From positions 1-48,974 of the forward strand of contig JBKJQV010000347.1 in the NCBI GenBank assembly GCA_046593815.1: a stretch of DNA of 48,974 bases. Direction: 5' to 3'. A program made the translations under genes and the position numbers. Source of the stretch: Sediminibacterium sp. (lineage in GTDB: Bacteria; Bacteroidota; Bacteroidia; Chitinophagales; Chitinophagaceae). Under the pieces are notes generated by a model. That model saw only the letters and a list, made by a program, of their open reading frames with translations. It was not told the DNA's origin and ran no database searches. This document shows, one piece after another, positions 1,432 through 48,974 of this stretch. The first letter of the stretch is position 1; each line of letters begins with the position of its first letter.

Positions 1432-1562
1432 TGCTAACGGATGGTGCTTTGCGAGGTTGTGAACTTCGTAACTACAATTATTCAACTTAAAATAAATATA
1501 AATGCGAAACGAAAATATGATTGAATCACAGGATTCACAATCTTGCAAAACACGTGTTACAG
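1432..1562 (+). repeat. attC-like site 2
   Basis: TGCTAAC ... GTGCTTTGCGAGGTTGTGAA / TTCACAATCTTGCAAAACAC ... GTTACAG. Confidence 0.8.
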
Positions 1563-3340
1563 GCATTACGGGTTTGAATGTACTATCTCTTTTTGACGGT
1601 ATGAGTTGCGGACAAATTGCACTCCAAAAAGCAGGGATAAAAGTAAATCAGTATTACGCTGCCGAAATAGATAAACACGCTATGAAAGTAACGCAACACA
1701 ATTTCCCAAACACTATTCAGTTGGGAGATGTAACCAAAGTAAAAGTAAAAAAACTTTACTTATCGGAGGTTTATTCGTATATTTGTAATTATGATAATAA
1801 TTTACAAAGCAAAATTTCCGAATGGGAAATGTTATATTGGATTGACAAGAAATTCACTATGTCAACGAAAATCGGAACACAAAAGCCGAATGAAGGACAA
1901 AAAGTACAACAATTTACTGTTTTACAATGCATTGAGGAAATACTCTTTTCAAGCAATACTTTGGGAAGTATTGGCAAAAATGGAAACGATAGAAGAAGCC
2001 GAAAAGATGGAAATAAGGATGATTTTAGAAAATCCTTCAAACTACAACGTAGCTGCTGGTGGTATGACTATGAGTTTTACCCCAGAAATTTGCAAGAAAA
2101 TATCGGAAAGTCAAAGAGGGGTACAGAAAACGGAAATTCAAAAAAAGAGAATATCGGAAACATTAAAGAAGAGGTTTTCAAACAAAAACGAGAGGTATTT
2201 GATTTCGGAAAGAACCAAAAAAGCGATGTGGAAGCCAGAGGTGAGGGAAAATTATTTGAAAGGTCGGGAGAAAATAAATTACAAAGAGAGGTCAAAGAAA
2301 AAGAGGGAAACGGAGGAAGTGAAGAGATTGATTCTATTAAAGAAATTATCCGAGAATTACAAGCATGGGATGAAACTAACGGAATTGAAAGTGATTACTG
2401 GAATATCCTACGACTTCATAAGGAGGAACAAGTTACGGTGGTTGAGCATGAATATGGATTTCAAATCTTTAAAGGAAGTATAAATCTTTGTATTGGCGGC
2501 AGCCCCTGCCAAGGGTTTAGTTTTGCAGGTAAACAATTGAATTTTGACGACCCAAGAAGTAAATTATTTTTTGAATTTGTAAGACTATTGGACGAAACGA
2601 AACCAAAATACTTTTTACTTGAAAACGTGCTTATGAAAAAAGATTACGAGCAAATAATTACAGAACATTTAGGAGTTGAACCAATATTTATAAACAGTTC
2701 TTTAGTTTCTGCTCAAAACAGAAAACGCCTTTACTGGACGAACATACCAAACGTAAGCGAGCCAAAAGACAAAGGAATAACCTGGGGTGATGTACGAGAA
2801 CGAGGTGTAAATACTGAAAGCTATTACTACACAGAAAAAGCAATGCAATGGCTGGCAAGAGTGAGCCAAAAGAAGAATAAAACTTTAACGGTTCATTCTG
2901 ATAATGACAAAATGCAAATGCTTGAAGCAAGTCATCATAAAAAATATAGCAATCAAAGATTTTTTGGAATAGTAGATTTACCTGAAAACGAACAAGCTAT
3001 TGCAGCGATGAGAGGCAGGTATTTAATTGACGGTAAAAGACAAGACGGTAAACAAAAAACAGAAGGATTGACAAAGCAATACATTGAATTTAGGTACGAT
3101 GGTAAAACAAATGCACTAGCTACTGTTGGAAAAGATAATGTAGTAGTTCCTTTTACTTTACCAAATAGAATACCTGCTGATGAATTTTTCTTTAGGTACA
3201 TAACTCCTTTAGAATGCGAAAGATTGCAAACTGTACCCGATAATTATTCTGCTATTGTAAGCAATTCTCAAAGGTATAAAATGTTAGGCAACGGATGGAC
3301 AGTTGATGTAATAGCTTACATCTTCGGAGGACTTTCGTAG
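1502..3340 (+). CDS. C5-cytosine DNA methyltransferase with a ~246-aa in-frame insertion
   Basis: Motif I LSLFDGMSCG, motif IV GGSPCQGFS, motif VI LLENV, motif VIII QNRKRLYW, and motifs IX-X ECERLQT...LGNGW; insertion lies between GDVTKV and INLCIGGSPC. Confidence 0.92.
   Translation: MRNENMIESQDSQSCKTRVTGITGLNVLSLFDGMSCGQIALQKAGIKVNQYYAAEIDKHAMKVTQHNFPNTIQLGDVTKVKVKKLYLSEVYSYICNYDNNLQSKISEWEMLYWIDKKFTMSTKIGTQKPNEGQKVQQFTVLQCIEEILFSSNTLGSIGKNGNDRRSRKDGNKDDFRKSFKLQRSCWWYDYEFYPRNLQENIGKSKRGTENGNSKKENIGNIKEEVFKQKREVFDFGKNQKSDVEARGEGKLFERSGENKLQREVKEKEGNGGSEEIDSIKEIIRELQAWDETNGIESDYWNILRLHKEEQVTVVEHEYGFQIFKGSINLCIGGSPCQGFSFAGKQLNFDDPRSKLFFEFVRLLDETKPKYFLLENVLMKKDYEQIITEHLGVEPIFINSSLVSAQNRKRLYWTNIPNVSEPKDKGITWGDVRERGVNTESYYYTEKAMQWLARVSQKKNKTLTVHSDNDKMQMLEASHHKKYSNQRFFGIVDLPENEQAIAAMRGRYLIDGKRQDGKQKTEGLTKQYIEFRYDGKTNALATVGKDNVVVPFTLPNRIPADEFFFRYITPLECERLQTVPDNYSAIVSNSQRYKMLGNGWTVDVIAYIFGGLS
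1755..1785 (+). promoter_or_regulatory. Bacteroidota sigma-A-type promoter for the nested GIY-YIG gene
   Basis: -7 box TATATTTG at 1778-1785, 5 nt before ATG 1791; TTTA about 19 nt upstream. Confidence 0.65.
1791..2483 (+). CDS. GIY-YIG homing endonuclease with NUMOD3-like repeats, nested in the +1 frame of the methyltransferase
   Basis: IIYKAKFPNGKCYIGLT, conserved R..EH, E and YN residues; NUMOD3-like FTPEICKKISESQRG and KTEIQKKRISETLK. Confidence 0.9.
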   Translation: MIIIYKAKFPNGKCYIGLTRNSLCQRKSEHKSRMKDKKYNNLLFYNALRKYSFQAILWEVLAKMETIEEAEKMEIRMILENPSNYNVAAGGMTMSFTPEICKKISESQRGVQKTEIQKKRISETLKKRFSNKNERYLISERTKKAMWKPEVRENYLKGREKINYKERSKKKRETEEVKRLILLKKLSENYKHGMKLTELKVITGISYDFIRRNKLRWLSMNMDFKSLKEV

Positions 3341-3343
3341 TAT

Positions 3344-3470
3344 TGCCTGTAACGTTTGCGGCTTGGCGATGTTGCCGCTTCCGCAGCCAAATTGAAAAAC
3401 AAAAGTTGATATTATGAATAAAAGTCTAATAGATATTCACGGCAATATTGCCAAACCGTTTGTTACCTGC
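3344..3470 (+). repeat. attC-like site 3
   Basis: TGCCTGTAAC (exact complement of cassette start GTTACAGGCA at 1556) ... CGGCTTGGCGATGTTGCCG / CGGCAATATTGCCAAACCG ... GTTACCTGC. Confidence 0.85.
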
Positions 3471-3506
3471 TGGGCGGTCAATCAGTAGGAACTAAAAACT
3501 AATAAA

Positions 3507-3729: not shown

Positions 3730-3867
3730 GCAGGTAACGTTTGCAGCTTTGCGAAGGCAGGGCAATTGAAATACAAATGTTCAAACACTTGATGAAGATA
3801 AATTATTAAATAACTGCTCGGATTAAGAACGTCAGCCCTGCTTTTGCAAAACTGTTTGTTAGCTGCC
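3730..3867 (+). repeat. attC-like site 4
   Basis: GCAGGTAAC (exact complement of GTTACCTGC at 3462) ... CAGCTTTGCGAAGGCAGGGC / GCCCTGCTTTTGCAAAACTG ... GTTAGCTGCC. Confidence 0.85.
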
Positions 3868-3899
3868 GTTTTTTGTCAGAGTGCAAAAACAAAAAATAA

Positions 3900-4169
3900 T
3901 TGAAAACAATTGATGAAATAGCTGATAATAATATATCAGGATGGGAAGACTTCACTTCTGGCTTTTCTTCTGATATAAAAGATGCTATGAAAGAGTATGC
4001 AGAAGAGTATCATTTATCTCAATTACAAAAAAAATATAAACCACCTTTTTGTAAAGGGTGTAAGTATTGGACTGTAATAGATGCTTTAGGTGGAGATTAT
4101 TGTAGGGTTTTAGAAAAATCAGTAGCATCGCCAAAAATTGATTATAAACACATAGACTGTCCGCTATGA
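3900..4169 (+). CDS. Hypothetical protein with CxxC...C...CP motif
   Basis: TTG start after an A-rich leader; ATGA overlap with the next gene. Confidence 0.6.
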   Translation: MKTIDEIADNNISGWEDFTSGFSSDIKDAMKEYAEEYHLSQLQKKYKPPFCKGCKYWTVIDALGGDYCRVLEKSVASPKIDYKHIDCPL

Positions 4170-4618
4170 TACATAATATAAAAGATAAAAACATAACACT
4201 TACACCATTGAATTTAATTAAAAATTTTGGTGTATTTGACTTAGACCCTTGTGGTTTACAATGGCATAAAACAGCAAATAAAATAATCTCTTTGCCTGAT
4301 GACGGATTAGTTGAAAATTGGGAAGGAAGAGTTTGGCTTAACCCACCATATTCAAATACAAAACCATTTATTAAAAAACTTGCAGAATACGGTAACGGAA
4401 TTGCATTAGTGTTAAACTCTACTGATACTGATTGGTTTCAAGAATATGGATTAAAAAAGGCAAACGGAATGTATTTATTGAAAGGCAGACCAAAGTTTAC
4501 AAGAATGGATATGTCCCCTGTATCAATAATGAGAGGAGTTGTTTTGTTTGCTTATGGAAAGTCAAATTGCGAAGCACTCCAAAATTGTCAATTAAATGGT
4601 TACTATGTCGGTCTTTAA
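4166..4618 (+). CDS. Phage N6-adenine DNA methyltransferase (Dam-like)
   Basis: FDLDPC, DGL..NWEGRVWLNPPYS, TDTDWFQ and LKGR.KF motifs typical of phage Dam-family methyltransferases. Confidence 0.85.
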   Translation: MIHNIKDKNITLTPLNLIKNFGVFDLDPCGLQWHKTANKIISLPDDGLVENWEGRVWLNPPYSNTKPFIKKLAEYGNGIALVLNSTDTDWFQEYGLKKANGMYLLKGRPKFTRMDMSPVSIMRGVVLFAYGKSNCEALQNCQLNGYYVGL

Positions 4619-5690: not shown

Positions 5691-5824
5691 ACATAACGTT
5701 GGTGCTTGCCGAAGTAGCGGAATTGGCAGCACTAAAGTTAAATTGAAAAACAAAAGCTAAACAAATTATTCATCAGCCGAACAATGAACGTCAAGCAGCT
5801 ATTTTGGCAAACACATTGTCAGGC
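5691..5824 (+). repeat. attC-like site 5 (core GTC instead of GTT)
   Basis: ACATAAC ... GTGCTTGCCGAAGTAGC / GCTATTTTGGCAAACAC ... GTCAGGC. Confidence 0.8.
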
Positions 5825-14521: not shown

Positions 14522-14992
14522 TTAAAATAATCCTTCGTCAGCCATCGACAAATGAGATTCCGCAGTAATAATAATATGATCTAGCAATTTAAGATCTAAG
14601 ATTTTAGCTCCTTGATTTATTTTCGTGCTCAAGGCTATATCCGATTGACTGGCTTGTAAATTGCCACTTGGGTGATTATGGCATAATATTATCCCACTTG
14701 CATTGGCATTTAACGCCAATTGAAAAACTACTTTCGGATCGCACATGGTGCCAGTCGTTCCACCTTGTGAAATCTTGGCCCAACCTATGACCTCGTTATT
14801 TCGGTTTAATAGTAAAACCGCCATACTCTCTCTGTATTCGATTTGATTGTCATCAAATACAGACCGTAATAATGGCATACAGTCCTGAGATCTTAACACT
14901 TTTGTTCGGTCTTCTTTTTTGATCTTTGATTTGTATGATAGTTCCACCTCCGACATTAGCGGCATTTTCTCGATTTTAAATAATGTTTTCAT
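14522..14992 (-). CDS. radC: RadC-like JAB-domain protein
   Basis: E....LLLNRNNEVIG, HNHPSG...S..D and LLDHIII motifs. Confidence 0.92.
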   Translation of the reverse strand: MKTLFKIEKMPLMSEVELSYKSKIKKEDRTKVLRSQDCMPLLRSVFDDNQIEYRESMAVLLLNRNNEVIGWAKISQGGTTGTMCDPKVVFQLALNANASGIILCHNHPSGNLQASQSDIALSTKINQGAKILDLKLLDHIIITAESHLSMADEGLF

Positions 14993-47813: not shown

Positions 47814-48974
47814 ATGGCTCATGTTTTATACAGATTACTTAGAAGTGGCGAAGAATCCGCTTTCAAAAACACTCTATTTAGAAGTAGAGAGCTGTGCTGT
47901 ATATTAGAAAAAAAGGCTGATCTTGTAGACGGCAAAGTTCCTTTAGACCAACTCCCCTCTGGGTTAGGCTTAGTTAATTTTTACGATAATTATAATGATC
48001 TTAATGCGGCATTGCCTCAACCTCAACCTGTAGATTCAATAGCAGGGGTAAGAAATTCACAAGGAACAAAATGGCTTCCTGGAAATTTAGGAGGAACATG
48101 GTATCCTAAAGGATTTTATATAAGTACTGGTACTGATTGGGTATGGGCAGGAGAATGGGCTAATCAAGCATTACAAATAACCGTAGATGCTGGAACTAAC
48201 TTCGATGAGTTTGTCACTCCTCTTACCTTTAACAATGCTGCTAAGTGGGATACCAAACATAATTCTATAAATTTTTTAGACGAAGGAGTAGCATTAGGTA
48301 CACCTGGAACAGTAGATTCTATTGACTTTGTAGGACCTGATGTTGTTGCGACAAGAATAGGCAATGCATTAACTGTAACTATTACAGGAGGAGGGGGAGG
48401 CGTGGGTGCTACTGGATATACTGGATATACTGGATATACTGGATATACTGGATATAGTGGTCCATCTGGCGCTATTGGGGCAACTGGTTATACAGGTTAT
48501 ACAGGATATACTGGAGCTGGAAACTTTACTGGTTACACTGGTTATACTGGATATACTGGATATAGTGGTCCATCTGGTGCAATTGGGGCAACTGGATATA
48601 CTGGATATACTGGATATACTGGTTACACAGGAGCTGGTAATTTTACTGGATATACTGGTTATACTGGATATACTGGATATAGTGGACCATCGGGAGCGAT
48701 TGGAGCTACTGGTTATACTGGATATACTGGTTACACAGGTTACACAGGAGCTGGTAATTTTACTGGTTATACTGGATACACTGGTTATAGTGGACCATCG
48801 GGAGCGATTGGAGCAACTGGTTATACTGGTTACACTGGTTACACAGGTTACACAGGTGCTGGTAATTTTACTGGTTATACTGGTTATACTGGATACACTG
48901 GTTATAGTGGACCATCGGGAGCGATTGGAGCTACTGGTTATACTGGATATACTGGTTATACAGGTTACACAGGA
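47814..48974 (+). CDS. Collagen-like tail fibre (3'-truncated; not in the ORF track)
   Basis: Open from ATG 47814 to the window end; [15 protein letters not shown] fibre motif, then Gly-X-Y repeats from ~48405. Confidence 0.88.
48405..48974 (+). repeat. Nested tandem repeat: 9-bp ACTGGWTAY units within ~110-bp higher-order units
   Basis: Encodes (GYT)[13 protein letters not shown](GYT)n-GAGNFT about five times. Confidence 0.95.

Follow-up and report, generated by a model that had tools for sequence, protein, structure and literature searches.

Out-of-frame homing nucleases have been described within phage genes for actinophages, where HNH nucleases interrupt DNA methylase genes (the ShiLan domain and the Pacc40 gp60 insertion; accessible parts of PMC11855218 and PMC9957025). 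The ShiLan layout was published in 2025 and was, like the present one, described without experiments (PMC11855218). The 48,974-nt stretch of DNA analyzed here (the window) holds the same layout. In both cases a phage methylase gene carries a nuclease ORF in a shifted frame and keeps its own frame free of stops, no intron or intein is detected, the distribution is patchy among divergent hosts, leaderless initiation is proposed for the nuclease, and relatives that stand free occur immediately ahead of an empty methylase (for ShiLan in Sashimi and Tiff81, here at locus L094). Literature searches, mostly outside subscription journals, returned no published GIY-YIG case. The element in the window is a widespread and likely mobile GIY-YIG variant of the published layout. 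The reading we favor, with a probability of roughly three in four, is that a phage C5 methyltransferase gene harbors, in a surface loop, an out-of-frame GIY-YIG gene that likely homes and is likely unspliced, the product being a long enzyme with a 239-residue insert.

The window was read as phage DNA on the basis of a terminase large subunit and a portal protein that match PHROG families, the phage possibly being crAss-like. The host ORF of 612 aa contains the motifs I, IV (PC), VI (ENV), VIII and X in order, which together with the fold identifies its product as a C5-cytosine DNA methyltransferase. A full-length AlphaFold model rebuilds the methyltransferase fold around the insert, with TM scores (by target) of 0.70-0.77 against the DNMT3 catalytic domains that were the top matches. 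An assembly-wide check of the source assembly recovered no second PF00145 gene. The proteins that carry the insert keep the host motifs, (G/A)(G/S)SPC in 88/88 and ENV in 79/88, and the stretch between motifs III and IV tolerates insertions, as natural linkers of 22, 33 and 39 aa are found there. The long methyltransferase probably still methylates.

The surroundings of the gene showed some further features. Two more orphan methyltransferase genes (79-783 and 4166-4618; N6-adenine types by Pfam) flank the C5 enzyme within 1 kb. Between the small gene cassettes there are divergent repeats of ~130 nt that are bounded by TAAC...GTTA (1018-1155, 1430-1570, 3343-3475 and 3730-3870), with similar pieces near 5700 and 6170. 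One such repeat encodes the first residues of the methyltransferase (from 1502) and the copy at 3343-3475 holds several loose ends of read contigs. An ORF in the minus-strand gene block at about 10-15 kb (14522-14992, minus strand) matches a PHROG 'DNA repair protein' family; on basis of its HNHPSG motif it looks RadC/JAB-like. The ORF at the tail end (48369-48974) contains many GYTGYTG / GPSGAIGAT repeats, over which two other frames are open as well.

The initial annotation placed ~740 nt between GDVTKV and INLCIGGSPC. The linker is indeed exceptionally long, but the net insert measures 717 nt (239 codons), a size that follows from the linker lengths and from contig joints. Alignment with insertion-free homologs, as proposed in that annotation, placed the junctions to within about 3 codons and yielded linkers of 20 aa when empty and 259 aa when filled. 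Among the stored proteins the linker was 259 aa in 135/140 filled and 20 aa in 12/12 empty cases, and of 94 viral methyltransferase rows, chosen by their N-terminal flank, 68 had motif III and GGSPC 20 aa apart, 10 had them 21-39 aa apart and 2 had them 259 aa apart (14 unscored). The site is spanned by joints in two X3 contigs, with 156 nt in place of 873 and 66 nt in place of 783, a difference of 717 each time. Up to 1627 and again from 2501 the window is matched almost completely by contigs of the runs X2, X3 and X4, which diverge from it between these positions; the depth of this comparison is low and only X3 bridges the site (runs X1-X5 all being DNA contigs, with X1 perhaps the source of the window). 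One X3 contig represents an empty allele with 1 difference in the 195 nt downstream. Filled and empty alleles also occur together in one 90% cluster, where filled P0262 and empty P0260 share the same sequence as far as QLG and once more from IGGSPC onwards. The resulting feature limits are collected in Table 1.

Table 1. Coordinates of the element, its host gene and the predicted parts of the read-through peptide within the window
Feature	Position	Strand	Basis
C5-cytosine DNA methyltransferase ORF, 612 aa, unbroken through the insert	1502..3340	+	PF00145 in two stretches, E 3e-40
5' host flank, following motif I and reaching motif III; unlike that of near-identical empty alleles	1628..1750	+	X2, X3 and X4 contigs diverge after 1627
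N-terminal portion of the read-through peptide, predicted to fold (residues 1-50 and 61-80 of the insert; pLDDT 71-88 per block)	1742..1981	+	AlphaFold
Inserted element, 726 nt replacing 3 host codons (net 717 nt)	1751..2476	+	Empty versus filled linkers, contig joints; ends uncertain by ~3 codons
Predicted Bacteroidota sigmaA-type promoter: TTTA (1755-1758), 19-nt spacer, TATATTTG (1778-1785)	1755..1785	+	Same place in relatives
GIY-YIG endonuclease ORF, 230 aa, +1 frame relative to host	1791..2483	+	PHROG, motif residues, purifying selection
Read-through peptide, charged middle, predicted disordered (pLDDT < 50)	2075..2329	+	AlphaFold
Read-through peptide, C-terminal helix and hairpin into methyltransferase, predicted folded (pLDDT 73-88)	2402..2482	+	AlphaFold
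3' host flank SINLCIGG, with nuclease stop (2481-2483) and element-associated Cys codon (2489-2491)	2477..2500	+	
Catalytic motif IV, GGSPC	2495..2509	+	Sequence

The frame of the methyltransferase is open across the whole insert. The initial annotation had counted ~246 codons without a stop, and indeed 0 stops were found over 1742-2490, against 2 and 30 in the other forward frames. The third frame of the nuclease gene has 29 stops, which is as expected. A stop in the host frame arises whenever a nuclease codon that ends in T precedes AA, AG or GA. The nuclease employs TCG GAA four times and ACG GAR three times, exactly as counted before, and T occurs at 0/43 of the risk sites versus 42/77 sites elsewhere, which is a per-site view of the same fact and no second proof. 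Synonymous recoding, another check put forward in the initial annotation, predicted 25.1 +/- 3.5 host-frame stops with the codon usage of the window and 14.7 +/- 2.4 after shuffling within the gene, and 0/20,000 recodings reached the observed number of 0 under either null. Controls taken from the window, 19 genes or parts of genes, had at least 12 stops each in the equivalent frame. Stops in the host frame of close homologs, which would have spoken against a translated loop, were absent from 18/18 nested sequences (the window and 17 loci, of which two are partial and one is a duplicate; nuclease identity to that of the window about 48-78%), and the host frame is also open in the distant nested copy L248. 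As the nested loci were recovered in searches with the nuclease frame, the sampling did not select for an open host frame. The free-standing relative at L094 contains 26 stops in the equivalent frame (T at 26/50 risk sites versus 46/79 elsewhere), and the open frame is therefore no by-product of the protein sequence. At locus L088 the nuclease is dead (2 stops, E74K) and the host frame is open, a case that is underpowered with only 1.7 host stops expected. Proteins P0003 and P0121 are frameshifted from the host into the nuclease frame (one contig each), which means either that broken host frames exist or that the assemblies contain errors. The 87 insert proteins recovered in the host frame form a set that is biased towards open frames, and these can thus not serve as independent evidence. 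Taken as a real and selected dual-coding element, the insert is well supported.

Ribosomes can bypass a stretch of mRNA, as exemplified by gene 60 of phage T4. For such a bypass of the insert we know of nothing beyond its mention in the initial annotation. It would predict that the take-off codon is followed by a stop and that internal stops are not selected against, which is contrary to what was found, and as bypassing needs no open frame we consider it highly improbable. The initial annotation had proposed that the element is tolerated as a translated loop, or else bypassed, by a route distinct from introns and inteins: the loop reading agrees with a frame that is open in all nested copies examined and closed in the free-standing relative, the bypass is unlikely, and the route is not new, having been published for HNH nucleases (PMC11855218). 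We infer that the insert is read through.

The assignment of the nested ORF to the GIY-YIG/NUMOD3 nucleases in the +1 frame could be maintained for the frame and, on basis of PHROG and the motif residues, for GIY-YIG, whereas Pfam finds neither GIY-YIG nor NUMOD3 in the protein of the window; NUMOD3 (PF07460) is annotated only on distant homologs. Searches against PHROG connected the nuclease to homing endonucleases (E 1e-13) and to a 'GIY-YIG motif' family (1e-6). Sequence searches in Pfam, NCBIfam and PDB gave no match for the nuclease of the window, and TIGR01453 matches 4/7 aligned members but not the window's own protein. The residues Y5, Y15-I16-G17, R26 and H30 are kept in 19/19 aligned copies, E74 in 17 and N86 in 18 (one copy is truncated). 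The conserved Arg, His, Glu and Asn are presumably the equivalents of those in I-TevI. In seven disjoint pairs, transitions that are silent in the nuclease occurred at 160/876 sites versus 30/748 for changes that alter both frames, and this excess of silent over replacement transitions implies that the nuclease is under purifying selection. Its stop had been said to fall exactly where the homology to the methyltransferase resumes. The TAA actually lies 7 nt inside the resumed host sequence, where it is spelled by the host codons I-N/I-D, and the nucleases of several relatives stop earlier.

The promoter box TATATTTG that had been ascribed to the nuclease is present and ends 5 nt before the ATG. 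The box by itself says little (TAnnTTTG occurs 40 times on the plus strand of the window) and the evidence lies in its conservation. In 9/17 distinct nested copies TAnnTTTG ends 5 nt ahead of the ATG and is preceded by TTT(G/A) at a distance of 19 nt; one of these copies varies the two free positions. L248 keeps the box with an A-rich leader of 17 nt. In another 5/17 copies, which form one clade, a hexamer 8 nt ahead of the ATG agrees with TATAAT at 5 of 6 positions, and 17 nt upstream of it there is a weak -35 that agrees at 2-3 of 6. The remaining 3/17 have neither type. According to the accessible parts of two Bacteroidota studies, TAnnTTTG is the sigmaA consensus at -12 to -5 and around 4-6% of the mRNAs are leaderless (PMC7366714, PMC9723704). 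The box of the window is predicted to start transcription at or beside the ATG, which would yield a leaderless nuclease mRNA. The type of box may switch with the type of host. With 78% nuclease identity, locus L161 ranks among the closest nested copies; its 3.5-kb contig was assigned to an archaeal MAG, but it has a Bacteroidota-type box and is probably mis-binned. The idea of an operator or target mimic, with the 5' end of the insert resembling the 3' flank, was rejected at only 4-9 of 21 ungapped matches in 15 copies.

Splicing was considered for both RNA and protein. Inteins with out-of-frame nucleases exist (accessible part of bioRxiv 10.1101/2025.01.02.630785) and keep alive a small chance that the insert is removed by an unrecognized form of splicing, for instance as a divergent intein of that kind. 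An intein would also need the open host frame and folded ends, and Cys is enriched near the 3' junction. On the other hand, the 5' end lacks an invariant C/S and the 3' junction is not preceded by N/Q, in line with the lack of intein termini reported earlier, and the Cys shifts between two positions. Pfam searches of 65 members gave no match to a Hint or intein family, and no Hint fold occurred among the matches listed in fold searches, in which the model was of low confidence and a very divergent form is possible; moreover, the predicted ends are alpha/beta and not all-beta. A group I intron core had likewise been judged absent. Instead of the ~50 nt estimated then, 40 nt remain outside the nuclease ORF, and Rfam gave no intron match at E values up to 1 in seven loci. 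Taken together, removal of the insert by splicing seems very unlikely.

Reading through the insert yields a peptide whose ends are predicted to fold. When the insert was modeled alone (AlphaFold), residues 1-50, 61-80 and 221-247 obtained pLDDT values of 71-88 and residues 112-196 values below 50. Foldseek returned no match at E <= 0.001 in the viral and PDB libraries, the best VIA-align Z was 4.2 (generic alpha/beta) and there was no usable Atlas match, results that show neither novelty nor absence. Over the whole insert there is no signal of amino-acid selection in the host frame (host-silent versus host-changing transitions, p 0.19 and 0.77; measured on pairs of present-day sequences with modest power). 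Transitions that are silent in the nuclease and change the host peptide occur in the parts predicted to fold (43/344) at about half their frequency in the middle (73/308; p 2e-4). This contrast survives stratification by base type and degeneracy and omission of the initial 15 codons of the nuclease (odds ratio 0.49-0.58, p 0.006-0.013), with the provisos that the model from which the regions were delimited itself draws on related alignments and that the two pairings share sequences. Transversions gave no significant contrast, and a constraint at the level of DNA or RNA could produce the same pattern. It is plausible, judging from the model, that the ends of the peptide form a folded clamp.

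The data also bear on another possibility: an open host frame might be maintained because it prevents polarity on genes downstream or preserves coupled translation, with a long methyltransferase that is itself inactive or dispensable. The lack of overall amino-acid selection on the peptide would agree with this, as would the fact that some phage loci have 2-3 paralogous methyltransferases within 3 kb, of which one may be spare. Nevertheless, most carriers keep the catalytic motifs, host-changing substitutions are fewer in the predicted folded ends and the promoter-like site of the element itself would lessen polarity, which makes this explanation unlikely. A more far-reaching version of the reading we prefer, in which the insert is translated as part of an active enzyme, is tentative and on balance somewhat doubtful: the peptide might be a domain that arose de novo from the alternative frame of a selfish nuclease gene, with its ends clamping the loop and thereby doing the job of splicing; the promoter would have been re-tuned between Bacteroidota and sigma70 types with both frames open, the Cys flank would resist cleavage, and the origin may have been a split methyltransferase, the halves of which grew into the nuclease from both sides and then fused.

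The search in the host frame yielded 87 proteins with the insert, 80 of which, together with that of the window, could be scored for identity. The identity of the insert is unrelated to that of the downstream host part (rho 0.009): among pairs with inserts at least 97% identical, 82/195 have hosts that are less than 65% identical, and 99%-identical inserts are found in hosts only 37% identical downstream. The spread is thus patchy and the insert has diverged less than its hosts, as for ShiLan. Near-identical inserts in divergent hosts, in combination with the near-identical empty alleles, make it likely that the element homes. These arguments, and those from co-conversion, are weakened by the mosaic nature of phage methyltransferases, as the host N- and C-flanks are themselves poorly correlated (rho only 0.14).

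The sequences that travel with the element are long and variable at the 5' side (about 8 to 40 codons) and short at the 3' side, which would fit co-conversion after a cut in genes that are mosaic anyway; the 5' flank of the window itself was likely co-converted. A Cys within three residues before motif IV occurs in 138/140 filled proteins, 0/12 empty cluster-mates and 2/82 distinct empty viral linkers, and by these counts its codon travels with the element. The same Cys is found in the empty methyltransferase gene beside the free-standing nuclease of L094, and from this one locus we would guess that the codon represents a cleavage-resistant flank.

Locus L094 (L094:1472-3009) encodes a 44%-identical free-standing relative, 8 nt upstream of an intact, insert-free methyltransferase whose unusual linker ends in LLCAGSPC, and its layout is a candidate for the ancestral arrangement. 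The nuclease had been described as overprinted on the methyltransferase, but since free-standing relatives exist the direction has to be reversed: of the two frames, that of the nuclease is older and that of the read-through peptide newer. Ordinary recombination among mosaic methyltransferase genes, or domestication, with a nuclease that drives no homing into the site, would account for the poor correlation between the host flanks and for the rarity of the element (2/94 viral alleles chosen by N-terminal flank). It accounts less well for a single site with a length of 259 in 135/140 filled proteins, for catalytic residues that are intact and under purifying selection, for the replacement of the flank right at the element and for a free-standing relative directly upstream of an empty methyltransferase; we therefore regard it as quite unlikely.

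A search of 400 other genomes from the host's phylum did not recover the element, a cultured phage collection gave 37 distant matches, none covering 80%, and a DNA pattern scan returned only one contig that was already known. Three loci with an open second frame over a distant GIY-YIG gene (L037, L039 and L043) were discarded, as they look like a high-GC antisense frame and lack a methyltransferase; the other distant GIY-YIG loci among the matches listed have stops in both other frames. Eight nucleases (P0005, P0008, P0103, P0104, P0268, P0269, P0271 and P0272) are fused in frame after 7-17 first residues of another C5 methyltransferase (MLKVATV...), possibly a third layout that borrows the start codon of the host. 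DNA context was recovered neither for these fusions nor for P0107, nor, in viral contigs, for P0006.

The favored reading suggests the following course of events. The internal promoter would give rise to a leaderless nuclease mRNA, the nuclease would cut empty alleles near the site, and repair would copy the element in, along with flanking sequence that is long and variable on the 5' side and short on the 3' side. The ribosome would then translate through the insert in the host frame to make a long methyltransferase. The two ends of the read-through peptide would form a joint fold that keeps motifs III and IV in position while the middle stays flexible, and the long enzyme would keep methylating. 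Matched filled and empty alleles make both homing and read-through directly testable. Gene callers hide such nucleases, as 8 close nuclease proteins were recovered versus 87 host-frame proteins. Should the predicted fold be true, the peptide would be a traceable case of domain birth by overprinting.

Compared to known systems, the element shares with the T-even Seg nucleases and I-TevI (free-standing and intron-encoded, respectively) the GIY-YIG family, the inferred cleavage of the recipient and the co-conversion of flanks, but it is neither intergenic nor located in a self-splicing intron, and the host frame appears to be read through (accessible part of PMC13096335). Inteins with out-of-frame or antisense homing endonucleases likewise have a host frame that is open across the nuclease, whereas here no splicing domain or splice-junction residues were detected (accessible part of bioRxiv 10.1101/2025.01.02.630785). 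The plant chromomethylases (CMTs) also accommodate a whole domain lying between motif I and motif IV of a C5 methyltransferase; theirs is an in-frame functional chromodomain and the one described here a by-product of a selfish gene (accessible part of PMC3934875). ShiLan remains the closest parallel, by similar working and not by homology, as the nuclease here is of the GIY-YIG and not the HNH type (PHROG, motif). Further differences are the position in the loop between motifs III and IV of a C5 methyltransferase, the AT-rich and probably Bacteroidota phage, the conserved promoter-like box of two types, and the peptide ends that are confidently predicted to fold, where for ShiLan confidence was poor except for a small helical bundle (PMC11855218). 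The element would extend splicing-free homing from the HNH nucleases of actinophages to GIY-YIG nucleases within C5 methyltransferase genes, and it points to a general third route in addition to introns and inteins.
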